Source: a virus (Duplodnaviria > Heunggongvirae > Uroviricota > Caudoviricetes). Taken from it: a stretch of 5,747 nt of DNA. Positions 1 to 5,747 of the stretch are shown in pieces (position 1 is the first letter of the stretch; every line of letters starts with the position of its first letter). Position numbers and translations under genes: made by a program. Under the pieces are notes generated by a model. That model saw only the letters and a program-made list of their open reading frames with translations. It searched no databases and was not told the DNA's origin. Where the stretch lies: the IMG/VR virus record IMGVR_UViG_2576861133_000018; one strand, written 5' to 3'.

Positions 1-15
1 CTCGGTTTACGAGAA
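1..15. other. Partial invertase crossover site (pix/gix-like), left boundary of the invertible segment, cut by the window edge
   Basis: ctcggtttacgagaa matches positions 12-26 of the reverse complement of the site at 3323-3348 (ttatctaaaacc tc ggtttacaggaa) except for an AG to GA swap. Only the core and one half-site are visible. Confidence 0.5.
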
Positions 16-948
16 CTCGGCACAAGCGGGGAGAAAATACCGTTACTCAGTACAGCGAATACCTGGACTAATCGACAAACATTCAGCGGTGGCCTTTCTG
101 GTGAACTATCCGGCAATGCTTCTACAGCTGCAAAATTAAAAACTGCCAGGAAAATAAGCAATGTGGCTTTTGATGGTTCCTCCGATATCACATTAAAAGC
201 AAGTCATGTTGGTGCGTTTGCCTTAGGGAAAACAGGAAGCACCGTTGCGAATGATAAAGCAGTTGGATGGAACTGGAGTAGCGGAGCCTATAACGCAACT
301 ATTAGTGGTGCATCAACGTTAATTATTCATTTTTATATGGGAGAAGGAAGTTGTCCTGCAGCTCAGTTTCGGATTAATTATAAAAATGGCGGTATTTTTT
401 ATCGTTCAGCCCGTGATGGTTATGGTTTTGAAGCCGACTGGTCCGAATTTTACACCACCACCAGAAAGCCTTCAGCAGGAGATGTTGGTGCACTGCCGTT
501 ATCTGGTGGTCAACTGAATGGTGCACTGGGTATCGGAACATCCAGTGCTCTTGGCGGTAATTCGATTGTATTGGGTGATAATGACACGGGCTTTAAACAA
601 AATGGCGATGGTAATCTGGATGTTTATGCTAATAACGTCCATGTTATGCGCTTTGTCTCCGGAAGCATTCAAAGTAATAAAACCATAAATATTACAGGGC
701 GTGTTAACCCCTCGGATTACGGTAACTTTGATTCCCGTTATGTGAAAGATGTTCGACTTGGTTCACAGCAATATTATGGAGTGAACAACTGGCAAACATG
801 GAATTTCCAGTGCCCTTCAGGTCATGTATTGTCTGGTATTAATGTTCAGGATACAGGGTCTAACTCTGCCGATAATATAGCGGGCGTTTATTACAGACCC
901 GTTCAAAAGTATATAAATGGCACCTGGTATAATGTAGCGAGCGTTTAA
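1..948 (+). CDS. Phage tail-fibre protein, C-terminal variable domain (5' end lies upstream of the window)
   Basis: Frame 1 is open from nt 1 to TAA at 946-948; the ORF track reports only the GTG-bounded part 163-948. Gly/Asn/Ser-rich. Shares motif [22 protein letters not shown] with the minus-strand paralogue (ALGGNSITLGDNDTGIKQGGDG) and a similar C-terminal tip ([14 protein letters not shown] vs RPLQKYISGNWYNV). Starts LGLRE, encoded by the partial crossover site at 1-15. A tfa gene follows 1 nt after the stop. Confidence 0.8.
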
Positions 949-949
949 T

Positions 950-1483
950 ATGATGCACTTAAAGAACATAAAAGCGGGTAATGCTAAAACACTGGAACAG
1001 TATGAGTTAACAAAGAAACACGGAGTTATCTGGCTTTACTCTGAGGACGGAAAAAACTGGTATGAGGAAGTGAAAAACTTTCAGCCAGACACCATAAAGA
1101 TTGTTTACGATGAAAATAATATTATTGTTGCCATAACCAAAGATGCCTCCACACTTAACCCTGAAGGTTATAGCGTCGTTGAGATTCCTGATATTACCGC
1201 CAACCGGCGTGCTGACGACTCAGGTAAATGGATGTTTAAAGATGGCGCAGTCATTAAACGTGTATATACCGAAGAAGAGTTGCGCCTACAGACGGAAAAC
1301 CAGAAAAAAATATTATTACAGCAGGCCAGAGAAAAAACGCAGTTCTGGCAAACACAGCTTACTTTGGGGATTATCACTGATTCAGACAGACAGCAACTGA
1401 TGAACTGGATGCGATACGTGCAACAGGTTGAGACAACTGATACCTCGGTTCTTCCTGTAACATTCCCGGAACCACCAGAATAA
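950..1483 (+). CDS. tfa: Tail-fibre assembly protein (Tfa chaperone)
   Basis: 177-aa ORF starting 1 nt after the tail-fibre stop. N-terminus [11 protein letters not shown]...[16 protein letters not shown] is nearly identical in pattern to the convergent paralogue at 1514-2041, with a divergent C-terminal half, as expected for Tfa/U-type chaperones. Start may be the second ATG at 953. Confidence 0.85.
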
Positions 1484-1484
1484 G

Positions 1485-1510
1485 AAAAGGCCCGTACGGG
1501 CCTTAATTTG
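1485..1510. terminator. Bidirectional intrinsic terminator between the convergent tfa genes
   Basis: Perfect palindrome ggcccgtacgggcc at 1489-1502, flanked by aaaa (1485-1488) and ttaatttg (1503-1510). It sits in the 30-nt gap between the stop codons of the two tfa genes. Confidence 0.6.
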
Positions 1511-1513
1511 TTG

Positions 1514-2041
1514 TTATTCTGGTTTCTGTGGCCATTCAGGCTTTGCAGTATCCACACGGCTGACCATAACGCTGTAGCGTTCCCATGATTCCAGTCGTGT
1601 GCGTTCCTCATCAGTTGCCATATTCAGTCTGACAGCACGTTCCAGCGGTTGAATCACAGACTCCGCTTCGGAAAGCAAAGCGGCTTTTTGTAACTCTGCC
1701 TGCTGTTGCAGTTCCTGTTTTGTATATTCCCGCTTTACTACTTTACCATCCAGAAACTTCCAGTTTCCCGAGATATCGGCGCGACGGTTGGCTGTTATAT
1801 TCGGTAACTCAACAACACTTAACCCGTCAGGGTTAAGTGTTGATACGTCTTTCTCAATACAACGAATAATCCCCTTCTGGTCATAAGCTATTTTTAAAGT
1901 ATCATCCTGAAAGTTTTTTAATTCGTCATACCAGTTTTTACCGTCTTCTGTATATAGCCAGATAACGCCAGCTTTTTTCGTAAGCTGATACTGCTCAATG
2001 GTTTTGGGGTTTCCGGCGGTAATATTTTTCAGATGTTGCAT
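1514..2041 (-). CDS. tfa: Tail-fibre assembly protein (Tfa chaperone), alternate copy
   Basis: 175-aa [43 protein letters not shown]..., paralogous to 950-1483. It lies immediately downstream of the minus-strand tail-fibre gene; start ATG 2039-2041 is 15 nt after that gene's stop. Confidence 0.85.
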
Positions 2042-2056
2042 ATATTCTCCTGATGG

Positions 2057-3338
2057 CTATGCCTGTTCAACGTTATACCAGTTACCAGAAATGTATTTTT
2101 GTAGTGGTCGTGACACCATCCAGTCATCTCCATCAACCTCACCAATAATTTGCAATCCTGTTGTCACATGACCATTACCTGGTTCGCAAAGTCCTCCGCG
2201 ATATAATGTGTCAGAACGTCTGCCTCCCAGACGCACATTTCTGATAAAAGAACTATTCAGGTAATCATTTAAGTTTGACCCCCAGCACCCACCAAATATA
2301 TTTCCATCGGTGTTATAACGGACGCCACCCGCAATAAGAGCACCCGGTGAAATAAAGGATTTATCGTTCGGGTTAAACTGCCATAAAGCATCATTACCGC
2401 CATCGCCACGCATATGAATACATGGAACCGGAAATCCATACTGTTCTGTCAGTAAATACCCAAAGCTGACCGCGCCGGGATAGCCCTGTCCATTGCGAAT
2501 GGACAAGCCCTTAACTATCGGCACGTAAAGACCACCAGGAGTGGGATTCCAGGCAAACTGCGTCTGAACAAAAGGCGCGGTGGCATTATTCAACTGGTCT
2601 GCAAATGCGCCACTTCCATCAGGAATTATTCCCTGATGAATATATGCAACCCGCTTATAAAAATCAGCAGATGCGGGTTGAAGCCCAAATGCCAGTTGTC
2701 CATTTGAATAGAATAAAAGGACACCGTCGCCGCCCTGTTTAATACCAGTGTCGTTATCTCCGAGAGTAATGGAATTACCGCCCAGTGCGTTATCTGTACC
2801 AAGCGCCAGCCCACCATCAATTTTGGCCCCGTGGCTGACAGATATAGCACCTGTTCTCAGATTTATAGCGAATGGCCTTAATGGGCCGATATCACCGTTT
2901 TCGCCTTGTCCTTCAGCCGTCGGAATGAAATGAAGAAAATCTTCTGAACGACGGAAAATAAGACCGAAGGCATCATTGAAAATTCGCAGCGCATTCACCG
3001 TGCCAATTTTCAGTTCTCCGGTCATTTTATCGCCGGAACGCTGAACGGCGTTACCAGCCTTGTTTACCGTTTCCTGTAAACCGAGGTAGACAGATATAGC
3101 ACCTGTTCTCAGATTTATAGCGAATGGCCTTAATGGGCCGATATCACCGTTTTCGCCTTGTCCTTCAGCCGTCGGAATGAAATGAAGAAAATCTTCTGAA
3201 CGACGGAAAATAAGACCGAAGGCATCATTGAAAATTCGCAGCGCATTCACCGTGCCAATTTTCAGTTCTCCGGTCATTTTATCGCCGGAACGCTGAACGG
3301 CGTTACCAGCCTTGTTTACCGTTTCCTGTAAACCGAGG
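2057..3338 (-). CDS. Alternate tail-fibre C-terminal variable domain (no own start; would be fused to the constant N-terminal part only after inversion); contains an in-frame 84-aa tandem duplication
   Basis: Frame is open from the crossover site down to the stop at 2057; the ORF track starts at Met 3277. Immediately upstream in frame is NLGLQETVNK, encoded by the crossover site, preceded by TAA. Shares the Gly-rich motif and C-terminal tip with the + strand tail fibre. The 5' boundary is approximate. Confidence 0.8.
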
Positions 3339-3340
3339 TT
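2837..3340. repeat. Perfect direct tandem duplication, 2 x 252 bp (copy 1 about 2837-3088, copy 2 about 3089-3340)
   Basis: By eye the two copies are identical over about 250 bp (gacagatatagcacctgttctcag ... gtttcctgtaaaccgagg). The encoded 84 aa (MTGELKIGTVNALRIF ... AVQRSGDK) appears twice in the 2057-3277 ORF. Each copy ends with ttcctgtaaaccgagg, the left half and core of the crossover site. Confidence 0.9.
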
Positions 3341-3348
3341 TTAGATAA
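3323..3348. other. 26-bp invertase crossover site (pix/gix/hix family), right boundary of the invertible segment
   Basis: ttcctgtaaacc ga ggttttagataa has two 12-bp inverted half-sites around a 2-bp core. From memory it differs at one position from the phage Mu gix site (TTCCTGTAAACCGAGGTTTTGGATAA). It lies just upstream of the invertase gene, the position it occupies in Mu, P1 and e14. Confidence 0.75.
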
Positions 3349-3349
3349 T
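3323..3349 (+). promoter_or_regulatory. Possible invertase promoter overlapping the crossover site
   Basis: -10-like GATAAT at 3344-3349, about 54 nt upstream of the GTG at 3403. In Mu and relatives the invertase promoter overlaps the crossover site. No convincing -35 was identified. Confidence 0.2.
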
Positions 3350-3402
3350 GGCGGTTTCTGGCCTGCATGGCATGATTTGTGCTTTTGGACGGGAGATTCA
3401 GC

Positions 3403-3645
3403 GTGCTGATTGGCTATGTAAGGGTATCAACAAATGACCAGAATACAGATCTGCAACGAAACGCTCTTGTTTGTGCAGGATATGAACAAATATTTGAAGA
3501 TAAATTAAGCGGAACAAGGACAGGCCGACCTGGATTAAAACGTGCTTTAAAGCGCCTTCAAAAAGGTGACGCACTGGTTGTCTGAAAACTGGACTGACTG
3601 GTTCACTGTATGCGGCATCTTGTCGTGCTGGTGGTGGAAGCCTAG
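3403..3645 (+). pseudogene. pin: Decayed Pin/Gin/Cin-family serine DNA invertase (N-terminal fragment only)
   Basis: RBS ggaga at 3392-3396, then GTG 3403 encoding (M)LIGYVRVSTNDQNTDLQRNALVCAGYEQIFEDKLSGTRTGRPGLKRALKRLQKGDALVV, the conserved invertase N-terminus including the catalytic Ser in VRVST. TGA at 3583-3585 sits where family members have Trp (WKLDRLGRS). A second in-frame TGA at 3595-3597 is followed by recognisable homology (HCMRHLVVLVVEA) to TAG at 3643-3645. The C-terminal two-thirds, including the DNA-binding domain, is missing. The ORF track calls 3379-3585. Confidence 0.75.
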
Positions 3646-3729
3646 AAAAAGTATCGGGTGTTACTGAACCGTGTTGATACATCAACTGCACCTGATATTG
3701 AGTGGCCTACGAACCCTGTCAGGGAGTAA
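3646..3729 (+). pseudogene. 3' fragment of a tail-fibre assembly gene, fused in frame to the invertase remnant
   Basis: Encodes [27 protein letters not shown], matching the C-terminus of the ORF at 4509-4778 ([27 protein letters not shown]). No start codon and no N-terminal part. Confidence 0.65.
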
Positions 3730-3780
3730 TCATTGGGATTATGCCGCAGCACGTCTTAAGCAAGAACGTGCTGCGGTTGG
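3646..3780. repeat. Direct repeat copy A (tfa 3' end plus downstream hairpin), about 135 bp, roughly 85-90% identical to copy B
   Basis: Identical blocks cgtgttgatacatcaactgcacctgatattgagtggcct and cctgtcagggagtaatcattgggattatgccgcag are shared with 4694-4829; differences are scattered elsewhere. Confidence 0.8.
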
Positions 3781-3792
3781 ATGCTATTTTTT
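3744..3792 (+). terminator. Hairpin with trailing T-run between the pin/tfa remnant (+) and the convergent methyltransferase gene (-)
   Basis: Perfect 11-bp stem ccgcagcacgt / acgtgctgcgg with an 11-nt loop (3744-3776), followed by ttggatgctatttttt. The T-run is separated from the stem by 8 nt, so not a textbook terminator. Confidence 0.4.
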
Positions 3793-4452
3793 CCCTGAAG
3801 CGGAAAACATTACTACAGTACCTTGAACCTTGGTTTTAACATTCTCGAAATGCTCTGAGAGTATATGTGTTAAGCCTTCTTCGGAATCTTTTGTGTTTGA
3901 AAAGATGCCTTTCTGATTGTAAATGCGCATCAGTTTTTGACCGAAGCTATTGTGCACAACTCCATCGCCAAGAATTGTGGCTCCGTATAGAGTTCCATCG
4001 TCAGTTAAGGCCTGCGCCGCATTGCGTATTACACAGCTTTTTGTAGATATATTTCCAGGCAGGCAGTGAAGAAGGTAAAACATGGAAATGGAATCAAATT
4101 GACCATGTAACGCCGCGGGATAAGGTTCAAAAACATCATGGCTAATTTTATGTTTAATTTTTGATTCCCCAGCCCTTGTAGATGCCGCGTTCAGGCTAGC
4201 TTCGTTCAAATCCATTAAAGATATCAGACTACTCTCAGGTACGTGAGTAAGGTAAAACCCAGTTCCAACACCAATATCCAGATGGTTGTTACCTACATGT
4301 TCCAGAAAGTGTGGAAGAAGGTGTTCCTTTGTAGGACATCCCCATGCAAGCCGATTTGATACTCCCAAAACCCACCAGTCATAAAGCTTTAGGGTAAGTG
4401 GTGTGTAAATTTTAGCCCCATCATCTGTGTTTTTTTTCATTGATTTCACCAT
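3784..4452 (-). CDS. Class I SAM-dependent methyltransferase (Rossmann fold), substrate unknown
   Basis: 222-aa ORF with glycine-rich motif I HLDIGVGTGFYL, an acidic post-I residue (LMDLN) and motifs II/III (FDSISMFYLLHCL, LTDDGTLYGATIL). No DPPY/NPPY/SPPF or PC/ENV DNA-methyltransferase motifs. Start could be ATG 4452 or the in-frame ATG 12 nt downstream; neither has a strong SD. Confidence 0.75.
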   Translation of the reverse strand: MVKSMKKNTDDGAKIYTPLTLKLYDWWVLGVSNRLAWGCPTKEHLLPHFLEHVGNNHLDIGVGTGFYLTHVPESSLISLMDLNEASLNAASTRAGESKIKHKISHDVFEPYPAALHGQFDSISMFYLLHCLPGNISTKSCVIRNAAQALTDDGTLYGATILGDGVVHNSFGQKLMRIYNQKGIFSNTKDSEEGLTHILSEHFENVKTKVQGTVVMFSASGKK

Positions 4453-4471
4453 GTTATAGTTTTATTTGTGA

Positions 4472-4500
4472 ATTAAATCAATTATGGCGATGAATTACAA
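4472..4500 (-). promoter_or_regulatory. Candidate sigma70 promoter for the methyltransferase gene
   Basis: On the minus strand: TTGTAA (plus 4495-4500), 17-nt spacer, TTTAAT (plus 4472-4477), about 20 nt upstream of ATG 4452, in an AT-rich 56-bp divergent intergenic region. Confidence 0.3.
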
Positions 4501-4508
4501 GGGGTTAA

Positions 4509-4778
4509 ATGCTGCCGCAGCATAGCGATATTGAAATAGCCTGGTATGCTTCGATACAGCAGGAGCCGAATGGCTGGAAGACCGTCACCACACAGTTCTA
4601 CATCCAGGAATTCAGTGAGTATATTGCGCCACTGCAGGATGCTGTAGATCTGGAAATCGCAACGGAGGAAGAAAGATCGTTGCTGGAGGCATGGAATAAA
4701 TATCGGGTATTGTTGAATCGTGTTGATACATCAACTGCACCTGATATTGAGTGGCCTGCAAATCCTGTCAGGGAGTAA
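4509..4778 (+). CDS. Truncated tail-fibre assembly protein (C-terminal domain only)
   Basis: 89-aa ORF with RBS aagggg 4 nt before ATG 4509. The C-terminal part ([39 protein letters not shown]) resembles the C-terminus of the Tfa at 1514-2041 ([36 protein letters not shown]). The conserved Tfa N-terminus (MxHLKNI...GVIWLY) is absent. Confidence 0.6.
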
Positions 4779-4829
4779 TCATTGGGATTATGCCGCAGAC
4801 ACGTCGTATGCAGGAACGTGCTGCGGTTA
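4694..4829. repeat. Direct repeat copy B (tfa 3' end plus imperfect hairpin 4793-4826)
   Basis: Partner of 3646-3780; see copy A. The hairpin ccgcagacacgt ... acgtgctgcgg has a one-base bulge. Confidence 0.8.
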
Positions 4830-4892
4830 GTTTGTGAGCTTTCGATAGTGGTTGTTATTTTTGCCCTTATTTGTTCCGGAGGCCATGGTTCA

Positions 4893-5063
4893 ATGGTCCG
4901 TCTGCCCCCTGTGGTGATGTCAGCAAAATCAGCCACTGCGCGAACCACAATAGCCCGGGAAGATGCTGAAGATCACCAGGTAAAGCTGTCAGCGCAGAAA
5001 CTGGAAGAACTGCTCGCATCAATGGTTAAGGATGAGGTTGATCGCAATGATGGGATTTATTGA
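4893..5063 (+). CDS. Hypothetical small protein (56 aa); possibly a pseudogene whose frame continues past an in-frame TGA to 5153
   Basis: ATG 4893 is preceded by ggagg at 4876-4880 (12-nt spacing). Encodes MVRLPPVVMSAKSATARTTIAREDAEDHQVKLSAQKLEELLASMVKDEVDRNDGIY. The ORF-track TTG start at 4782 overlaps the upstream hairpin and is less plausible. The same frame stays open after TGA 5061-5063 for 29 more codons to TAA 5151-5153. No recognisable family. Confidence 0.3.
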   Translation: MVRLPPVVMSAKSATARTTIAREDAEDHQVKLSAQKLEELLASMVKDEVDRNDGIY

Positions 5064-5157
5064 CGTCAGCGAGAGCAGAAGGAAGAACTGAATAACCTGA
5101 ATGATTTACGCTCAATCAGAGCGATGGCGATTAGCGGCAATCACGCTCGATAAAATT

Positions 5158-5184
5158 AACCCCGGTGATCATCCGGGGTTTTGC
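5158..5184. terminator. Intrinsic terminator, probably bidirectional
   Basis: GC stem ccccgg (5160-5165) / ccgggg (5173-5178) with palindromic loop tgatcat, followed by tttt (5179-5182) on the + strand; the minus strand reads stem then ttaatttta. It lies between the end of the + frame at 5153 and the Rha gene stop at 5190. Confidence 0.65.
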
Positions 5185-5189
5185 ATTCA

Positions 5190-5747
5190 TTAAAACCGCA
5201 TCAACCTTTCCACCAATTGTTCTTTACGGGCAACGATCCACCCATGTTGCTCCAGATAAAATTTAAACCGTTCCAGCGTGCATACCATCGCATCGGCGGG
5301 GACTTTTTCTGTGAACTCGACCTGACCGTGTTTATCGAAGTGGATCAGTAATGCGCATCCATTATTTGGGGCGGGGGAGTTTTGTGCTGCAGGAGGACGT
5401 TTGTGGAGTTCTTCTTCCATTGCGTTAAATTTTTCAATGTAAGCTTCTTTTAGTCTGGCTGCTTTTTTGCCAGTAAATCCCATTACGAGGAACATGAAGC
5501 CGTCTTTTGTGATCAGGTAGCATCGTGATTCACGTTCTGCGCCGTTGCCAATTTCGACAGTCTGAACATCGGCCGAAAAGTTGGCTGATGTAAATTCGGG
5601 AGAGCAGTCGAGTGTGTCAATCTTAGCTAAAACGTGTTTATGTTGTTTATCGAAGTAGTCGGCAACAGCTTGAGAGGTGGTAACCAGGCGACCATCTTTG
5701 AAAAAGACTTTTGGTGACTCGTTAGAAAAAGTTATAGCTGTATTCAT
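5190..5747 (-). CDS. Rha-family phage regulatory protein (antirepressor-like)
   Basis: 185-aa ORF whose N-terminal half (FFKDGRLVTTSQAVADYFDKQHKHVLAKIDTL...YLITKDGFMFLVMGFTGKKAARLKEAYIEKFNAMEEEL) matches the pattern of the phage Rha regulatory domain. The start ATG is the last 3 nt of the window, so the true start could lie further upstream. Confidence 0.7.
   Translation of the reverse strand: MNTAITFSNESPKVFFKDGRLVTTSQAVADYFDKQHKHVLAKIDTLDCSPEFTSANFSADVQTVEIGNGAERESRCYLITKDGFMFLVMGFTGKKAARLKEAYIEKFNAMEEELHKRPPAAQNSPAPNNGCALLIHFDKHGQVEFTEKVPADAMVCTLERFKFYLEQHGWIVARKEQLVERLMRF

Follow-up and report, generated by a model that had tools for sequence, protein, structure and literature searches.

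Why should a methyltransferase gene lie antisense between two broken ends of a tail fibre assembly gene, and how did it come to be there? The question is posed by the virus record IMGVR_UViG_2576861133_000018 (Caudoviricetes), of which a stretch of 5,747 nucleotides (the window; all coordinates given here are positions in it) was analysed. A preliminary description, made from the sequence, had proposed a moron-type cargo gene acquired by recombination at the conserved 3' ends of tfa genes and had likened its position to that of mom beside gin in phage Mu. The methyltransferase gene is ybcY, which has already been catalogued, both in the K-12 DLP12 prophage as tfaD'-ybcY-tfaX' and as PHROG 2132. 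Taking the observations below together, we consider it quite likely that ybcY is a moron of lambdoid (DLP12/lambda-type) prophages, brought in on a bacterial cassette and expressed in the lysogen as a small-molecule methyltransferase. In the literature ybcY appears in incidental mentions only: a promoter table, the context of ompT and a negative result in an Hha screen (PMC3946193; PMC2408971).

Identity, start codon and distribution of ybcY

The window copy is 98.8-98.9% identical in nucleotide sequence to ybcY in K-12 records. Its product matches phrog_2132 over residues 5-222 (E 4e-157), taking in all 218 profile positions; the PHROGs entry for this family lists its function as unknown. The longest open reading frame (ORF) for the methyltransferase, 3784-4452 on the minus strand, would encode 222 amino acids, the length originally assigned to the protein. 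The true start is almost certainly Met5 (ATG at 4440-4438), which yields a protein of 218 amino acids, because all homologues outside the Escherichia coli/Citrobacter lineage start there, the PHROG match begins at that residue, the upstream ATG has been lost in some alleles and the Met5 ATG in none, and the -10 element of the promoter abuts the upstream ATG.

We found ybcY in 3,836 of 5,426 complete E. coli genomes (71%), at 95-100% nucleotide identity and in up to four copies per genome. It is also present in sequenced lambdoid phages, among them ev243, 2G7b, PhiR26_1, PhiR29, Kati and Turner. The gene is among the most widespread cargo genes of E. coli prophages and stays intact while its neighbours decay, a result that does not overturn current understanding. 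The family extends across the Gammaproteobacteria, with members in at least 527 species representatives. In these species the gene is usually a stand-alone chromosomal one with synteny at the level of the genus only, as in Pseudomonas, Enterobacter and Salmonella; the relatives nearest to the E. coli copy lie on plasmid-like DNA, on DNA flanked by insertion sequences or on prophage remnants. The possibility, raised at the outset, of a housekeeping family with conserved chromosomal synteny is thus borne out by half: the family is chromosomal with genus-level synteny, yet the E. coli lineage and its closest relatives reside on mobile elements.

Diverged members of the family, 64-67% identical, were seen in positions resembling those of cargo in Salmonella (L102-L104), where one adjoins an integrase beside mutS together with a ricin-B lectin gene. 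Others, of the same degree of identity and similarly placed, were seen in E. albertii (L105-L106), where one has NleG and OspG effector genes and cdtA around it.

Boundaries and origin of the cassette

The two direct copies of a tfa 3' end with its stem-loop, reported on either side of the gene, are real: 3632-3778 and 4681-4828 are about 89% identical. They align in two blocks, 3632-3749 with 4681-4798 (89%) and 3750-3778 with 4800-4828 (90%), with an indel of 1 nt in the hairpin between the blocks. No other sequence that occurs twice in the window is longer than 29 nt, if an unrelated tandem duplication of 252 bp is set aside, and the pair is therefore far beyond chance.

Copy A, on the left, carries an in-frame TGG-to-TAG change at 3643-3645 and ends with a stop at 3727-3729; by tblastn it is 90.6% identical to residues 163-194 of the PhiR26_1 Tfa protein. 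It is indeed fused to a decayed invertase, the pin frame passing two in-frame stops and running on to about 3630, where it abuts copy A directly. Copy B is 88% identical to residues 137-194 of the same protein (tblastn), matches Pfam Caudo_TAP at profile positions 75-130, and is annotated by the Prokaryotic Genome Annotation Pipeline (PGAP) as 'tail fiber assembly protein, missing N-terminus'. It does form the end of a truncated tfa ORF, as had been described, but in that ORF (4509-4778, 89 amino acids) the Tfa-derived part is limited by tblastn to codons 32-89 (4602-4775). The ORF is a chimera whose first ~29 codons (4509-4595) come from the native upstream flank of the methyltransferase gene. 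Since its junction is passed on with the cassette, the ORF has a PHROG of its own, phrog_2341, which it matches at 88 of 88 profile positions.

Hairpin A is the stem-loop that trails tfa in lambdoid phages. It begins 14 nt past the tfa stop and, on the opposite strand, lies 7 nt beyond the ybcY stop. The 76-nt segment that contains it folds at -28.6 kcal/mol (z -4.0) on the plus strand and at -25.4 kcal/mol (z -4.5) on the minus strand. Hairpin B and the flank to its right make up the conserved right boundary of the cargo slot discussed below.

Block structure and intactness were compared in a sample of 85 E. coli-type loci. One block is invariant among them, consisting of hairpin A, ybcY, the 56-bp spacer upstream of it, the sequence at 4509-4680 and the first 53-76 nt of copy B. 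What lies to the left of hairpin A is variable, being a full tfa, a pin remnant or unrelated sequence, and the sequence to the right of copy B is likewise variable. The fusion to pin was seen at 11 of the 85 loci, and in most related loci a full tfa occupies that place; the arrangement of the window, pin fusion included, is matched by 420 genomes over at least 80% of a 3300-5200 query. Copy A fused to pin had been taken for one arm of the acquisition. This does not hold, the fusion being a later deletion.

Relatives of the gene outside E. coli mark the ends of the unit more closely. A Citrobacter relative is 91.8% identical to the window across exactly 4595-3772, in a context with neither tfa nor hairpin, and in Salmonella relatives the homology extends from ~4509 or 4481 to 3778 or 3788. 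The hairpin is missing from the non-phage relatives of ybcY, and its absence from the Citrobacter relative indicates that the phage, and not the captured gene, is the source of hairpin A. In phage Ayreon (L098, 4042-4342) window positions 3632-3819 are joined to 4479-4595 by a 659-bp internal deletion of ybcY, and homology stops at 4595. The unit captured would thus be a bacterial cassette of ~824 bp (about 3772-4595), comprising ybcY and its own sigma-70 promoter. Ayreon keeps the last 36 nt of ybcY and part of the upstream region and still grows lytically; ybcY is therefore dispensable to such a phage.

Comparison of related prophages for presence and absence of the gene, a check suggested with the original proposal, revealed empty, filled and scarred sites. 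Two loci (L111 and L153) are empty, with a full lambda-type tfa, the hairpin and the conserved right flank, and no methyltransferase. PhiR26_1 is filled, with the layout J-lom-stf-tfa(full)-ybcY(antisense)-tfa'-hydrolase-ompT, and Ayreon carries the scar. The view of ybcY as a moron-type cargo gene is upheld, as the slot is empty or otherwise filled in related phages and the gene has its own promoter and is antisense to the tail genes. What does not stand is a gain peculiar to this prophage, since the cassette is conserved in the 71% of complete E. coli genomes that carry it.

We envisage that ~824 bp of bacterial DNA were inserted once, in antisense orientation, directly after the hairpin at the end of tfa, and that the insertion duplicated ~227 bp (tfa codons 137-194 and the hairpin) on both sides. 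The 11% divergence of the copies would then reflect age together with independent recombination with other tfa alleles. Copy A would be the left duplicate, and a later deletion, taking away what remained of tfa along with the 3' half of pin, would have fused the copy to the dead pin gene. The cassette has spread among lambdoid phages, probably by homologous recombination within the conserved sequences of tfa and the hairpin.

Enzyme class and probable substrate

The YbcY sequence passes the Pfam cut-offs of Methyltransf_12 (score 37.5, cut-off 30), Methyltransf_23 (29, cut-off 27) and Methyltransf_25 (27.7, cut-off 27), and Methyltransf_11 also passes. Invariant residues include D59, G61, G63, T64, G65 and D81, with D106 nearly invariant, and the family has a signature of its own in YDWWVL, FYLLHCLPG and YNxKGIFSN. 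An AlphaFold2 (AF2) model with a mean predicted local distance difference test score (pLDDT) of 89.9 shows alternating beta and alpha elements. Pfam thresholds, motif residues and modelled fold all place YbcY among the class I S-adenosylmethionine (SAM)-dependent methyltransferases. The class originally assigned to the protein is thereby retained, with 218 amino acids from Met5 in place of 222.

Foldseek neighbours of the model form a flat list with no decisive nearest: JHAMT, PmtA, SgvM, PfPMT, CysG/BelI, NovO/CouO and NodS. A profile search against PDB sequences returned JHAMT and UbiG only (E 1e-5 to 1e-3), and the NCBIfam matches, to CpaM, PmtA and RquA, were all far below their cut-offs. 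Placement of the protein by profiles and structure, as had been recommended, therefore gave a generic resemblance to small-molecule and lipid enzymes and no decisive subfamily.

Among ORFs clustered within ±4.5 kb at 78 loci from many genera, no partner gene shared across genera was found. An Rce1/CPBP-like gene near the methyltransferase was considered as a partner and set aside; it occurred at three loci only and did not generalise. In 15-17 species representatives of Pseudomonas (L258-L299), crotonase/enoyl-CoA-hydratase-like and CorA-like genes, named from sequence reading alone, come after the orthologue on its own strand. This synteny might hint at a substrate related to acyl-CoA or fatty acids.

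From the predicted fold and domain matches, YbcY is probably a stand-alone small-molecule methyltransferase with a lipophilic substrate, acting in the lysogen. It would methylate a small, probably lipophilic, cellular or environmental molecule and not DNA, which is the weakest step of the proposed mechanism, and we infer that its action would benefit the host and not virion assembly. Were the substrate identified, an enzyme that is very common as an accessory in commensal and pathogenic E. coli, sequence type 131 (ST131) among them, would gain a function.

A more specific and bolder reading seems unlikely to us, if worth keeping in view. YbcY would be a PmtA/PfPMT-like enzyme of lysogenic conversion that methylates a component of the membrane or envelope (for example phosphatidylethanolamine or a phosphoethanolamine group) or an external lipophilic toxin, with the tfa hairpin as a docking point for the exchange of cargo. 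PmtA and PfPMT are both on the Foldseek list; against the NCBIfam PmtA model (NF045882) YbcY scores 15.7 bits, the cut-off being 390, and it does not belong to PmtA by that measure. If the reading were true, ~70% of E. coli strains would have their cell-surface or small-molecule chemistry changed by lambdoid prophages.

A general cargo slot downstream of tfa

The hairpin was searched for in IMG/VR and eight reference loci, and 147 occurrences were found. To its right lay the 3' end of ybcY (57 cases), one conserved flank family (77) or the end of a contig (13). To its left was a tfa end in 103 cases and other sequence in 44; these other neighbours include an invertase, lambda ea47, an antisense EcoRII endonuclease, a MASE4-GGDEF protein, an IpaH-type NEL effector and membrane proteins. 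The hairpin core is kept even beside unrelated left flanks. Because the same hairpin and flank bound many unrelated cargos, the slot is best read as the familiar variable cargo region that follows tail-fibre genes, with hairpin and flank as its recognisable right boundary and ybcY as one of many occupants. The slot thus offers a simple sequence handle for cataloguing the cargo of lambdoid prophages.

In phage lambda (L097, NC_001416) hairpin copies at 22560-22610 and 24161-24219 bracket ea47. The second copy with its flank, past ea47, is 90% identical to window 4792-4850; as it has the right flank of copy B, ea47 is bracketed in the same way as ybcY. The first lambda copy shows one compensatory change in the stem, from C-G to A-T. 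Covariation in the hairpin was otherwise discounted, the sample having been drawn with a pattern that fixes one arm.

Could the hairpins be active recombination sites, recognised by a recombinase in the manner of integron attC and exchanging cargo, with the repeats as functional ends? The near invariance of the hairpin beside differing flanks is in keeping with this idea, as is its presence on both sides of ybcY and of lambda ea47 and at the boundary of many unrelated cargos. However, the duplication takes in 58 tfa codons and not the hairpin alone, the junctions on the left of the hairpin differ between loci, no hairpin accompanies the cargo unit in Citrobacter and no dedicated recombinase co-occurs. 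Ordinary homologous recombination in tfa and hairpin DNA explains the pattern, and active sites are very unlikely.

Expression, selection and role

The claim that ybcY has a promoter of its own is supported by an exact match upstream of the gene to the published ybcY promoter, TTGATT-17-TATAAC, which occurs once in the window where none is expected by chance. In K-12 the ybcY spacer is bound by RpoD holoenzyme in vitro, and the same promoter is listed in a published table (PMC3946193). From a second promoter-like site, at 4508-4481, the leader would be longer and would include GGTGA, a Shine-Dalgarno sequence placed 5 nt ahead of Met5. The K-12 data suggest that ybcY would be transcribed in the lysogen from the sigma-70 promoter, to which RNA polymerase would bind without activators and H-NS would bind as well. 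Translation would start at Met5 on a very short leader, and hairpin A probably marks the end of the transcript or stabilises it.

Sequence comparisons indicate that the product is a functional enzyme kept by purifying selection. The gene is intact at 83 of the 85 sampled loci, the exceptions being K-12 and a copy cut by the end of a contig. The ratio of nonsynonymous to synonymous substitution rates (dN/dS) comes to 0.17 when the gene is compared with a Salmonella allele of 88% identity and to 0.05 in the most divergent pair from E. coli, and 58 residues are invariant across genera. For expression from the repressed prophage and a benefit to the host, this selection is indirect support only. 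A functionless passenger, hitch-hiking in a region prone to recombination and slowly decaying as in K-12, might be suspected from the frameshift of the K-12 copy, the deletion in Ayreon, the pseudogenes all around ybcY and the binding of the silencer H-NS to the promoter region. Such a passenger is nonetheless hard to reconcile with the intactness and the dN/dS values just given, or with 58 residues conserved between genera in a family of at least 527 species representatives, and we hold it to be very doubtful.

The neighbouring invertase, placed as gin is beside mom in Mu, could be taken to point to a nucleic-acid methyltransferase, either a mom-like or anti-restriction DNA modification enzyme or one acting on rRNA or tRNA. 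The 222-amino-acid sequence has no (D/N/S)PP(Y/F/W), PC/ENV or C5 motif and no target-recognition domain; the absence of DNA-methyltransferase motifs, already pointed out, agrees with the Pfam results, which are to generic small-molecule methyltransferase domains only and to no DNA methyltransferase family, and with the top fold matches, which are small-molecule or lipid enzymes with no DNA methyltransferase among them. Among the PADLOC defence models only mad2 was hit, at E 0.009 and with no significant domain, which is not a meaningful match to a defence system. In most phages, moreover, the invertase is not adjacent, and the orthologues are stand-alone chromosomal genes without a restriction partner. 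A nucleic-acid substrate is accordingly most improbable.

An enzyme of the tail module whose substrate is the tail fibre, Tfa or another virion protein is barely credible: ybcY always adjoins tfa sequences in E. coli phages, but it is antisense to the late operon with its own sigma-70 promoter, stays intact in prophages with decayed tail genes and is retained in DLP12, which has no tail genes, has close and distant relatives with no phage genes nearby, and shares its slot with unrelated non-structural cargo in other phages.

Several points weigh against the account that we prefer, in which ybcY is a cassette-borne moron active in the lysogen. Composition does not mark the gene as foreign and was rejected as an indicator of origin. 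The gene had been thought richer in AT than the tail genes and is not: its 41.1% GC, with 35.9% GC at third codon positions (GC3), is close to their 41.6-46.4% GC and 32.4-43.8% GC3, and the sole part that stands out is the 56-bp upstream spacer (26.8% GC). Insertion with duplication is a reconstruction from sequence, and the structure could equally be the product of an unequal crossover between two phages. The K-12 ybcY spacer also contains an H-NS site (PMC3946193), and H-NS binding may keep ybcY silent in vivo. No U-tract lies beside hairpin A on either strand, so that the hairpin is at most a candidate terminator or mRNA stabiliser; the shielding of ybcY from convergent transcription that was first credited to it would be equally tentative. 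Finally, deletion of ybcY was without effect in a screen for Hha toxicity (PMC2408971), a null result of limited weight because the K-12 copy is frameshifted anyway.

The surrounding prophage

Coordinates of the features in and around the cassette are collected in Table 1. The locus forms the right-hand end of a lambdoid prophage that occupies ompW, adjoining ompW'/trpA, and 3300-5200 is 100% identical to ST131-type E. coli chromosomes such as that of JJ1886. The prophage genes are arranged in the order J, lom::ISEc12, stf, tfa, inverted tfa with an alternative stf C-terminus, pin pseudogene, tfa fragment, methyltransferase (minus strand), second tfa fragment, DUF4376 pseudogene, rha, ash and ompW'. 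All neighbours of the methyltransferase gene from pin to rha are pseudogenes.

Table 1. Features of the ybcY locus (positions in the 5,747-nt window; strand given where it applies).
Feature	Position	Strand	Basis
Decayed pin/gin-type serine invertase	3379..3631	+	Pfam Resolvase N-terminal domain, E 4.6e-15; frame reading; tblastn
Copy A, remnant of lambda-type tfa end (last ~30 codons)	3632..3729	+	Repeat analysis; tblastn
Hairpin A (CCGCAGCACGT...ACGTGCTGCGG)	3744..3776		Folding of 76-nt segment
ybcY coding sequence from Met5, predicted 218-amino-acid class I SAM methyltransferase	3784..4440	-	Pfam; PHROG 2132; homologue starts; selection; AF2
Sigma-70 promoter TTGATT-17-TATAAC (-35 at 4481-4476, -10 at 4458-4453)	4453..4481	-	Single exact match to published ybcY promoter
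Native upstream flank of captured gene, right end of cargo unit	4482..4595	-	Citrobacter homology; Ayreon scar
Copy B, 5'-truncated lambda-type tfa (codons 137-194 and stop), equivalent of K-12 tfaX	4602..4778	+	tblastn
Hairpin B, bulged copy	4793..4826		Folding, weaker (z -1.8 and -3.2)
Conserved right flank with decayed DUF4376/tail-fibre-related gene fragment	4829..5189	+	PGAP; PHROG tail-fibre matches

The pin remnant keeps its first ~85 residues, is interrupted by the two in-frame stops and lacks its C-terminal half; PGAP labels it 'recombinase family protein, missing C-terminus'. At 4875-5153 the PGAP annotation reads 'DUF4376 domain-containing protein; internal stop; missing N-terminus'. 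An ORF of 45 amino acids (3702-3839, plus strand) spans hairpin A and the 3' end of ybcY. PGAP lists it as a hypothetical protein and K-12 records name it 'nucleocapsid protein'; the call is probably spurious.

The preceding stf end and tfa, together with the inverted tfa and alternative stf C-terminus, form a G-segment-like invertible cassette. The Swedish isolates 4/0 and 4/1-1 (L307, L308) carry this cassette (Sv-tfa / tfa'-Sv', 1-3348, with inverted sites at 1-15 and 3323-3348) the opposite way round from each other. Inversion must be carried out in trans by another invertase of the genome, because the adjacent pin is a pseudogene in both isolates. A GC-rich hairpin, AAAAGGCCCGTACGGGCCTTAATTT, at 1487-1510 (z -4.3) separates the two intact tfa genes of the segment, which converge on it, and looks like a putative bidirectional terminator.

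The silent alternative tail-fibre C-terminus (ORF 2057-3277, minus strand) contains the 252-bp in-frame tandem duplication, with units at 2829-3080 and 3081-3332 that are 99% identical. The two units meet at the core of a gix-like site, so that an additional half-site (3071-3086) is present besides the full site, TTCCTGTAAACCGAGGTTTTAGATAA, at 3323-3348. The junction has no contiguous match in complete E. coli genomes or IMG/VR, and the unit is single-copy in JJ1886 and ten listed complete genomes. The duplication could be a rare aberrant product of invertase or slippage, or an artefact of assembly.

Comparison with known systems

Known enzymes that resemble YbcY (JHAMT, UbiG/Coq5, PmtA, Plasmodium PfPMT and BelI/CysG) share only 11-21% sequence identity with it. 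The likeness to gin-mom of Mu lies in the order of parts: the window has a G-segment-like invertible tail-fibre cassette, gix-like sites, a pin/gin-family gene and then a gene of modification type. In contrast to Mu, ybcY converges on pin, has only generic SAM-methyltransferase Pfam matches and normally has no invertase adjacent. The analogy with the position of mom, as first drawn, is therefore positional only and confined to this sub-lineage, with no link to DNA modification.

Lambda ea47, in the b region, occupies the same slot, is likewise antisense and is bracketed by two copies of the same hairpin. It differs in encoding an unrelated protein with no Pfam match, and the right-hand copy in lambda consists of the hairpin only, with no tfa codons. 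The closest counterpart is K-12 DLP12, where tfaD'-ybcY-tfaX' is followed by appY-ompT. The gene, its antisense orientation, the promoter spacer, the hairpin and the flanking tfa fragments are all the same, whereas ybcY is frameshifted in K-12 and intact in the window. The left tfa fragment of K-12 is longer and follows a terminase remnant; that of the window is reduced to ~30 codons fused to the pin remnant. To the right lie appY and ompT in K-12, and a DUF4376 fragment, rha/ash and attR at ompW in the window.

Phage morons are autonomous insertions of promoter, gene and terminator, exemplified by lom and bor of lambda, and effector loci are found downstream of the tail-fibre genes of O157 prophages. 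Unlike these, ybcY is not distinctive in composition, has the tfa hairpin of the phage as its candidate terminator and is flanked by a duplication of ~227 bp. Like them, it is a single gene with its own promoter, set between sequences that are contiguous in related phages, in the variable region that follows the tail-fibre genes.

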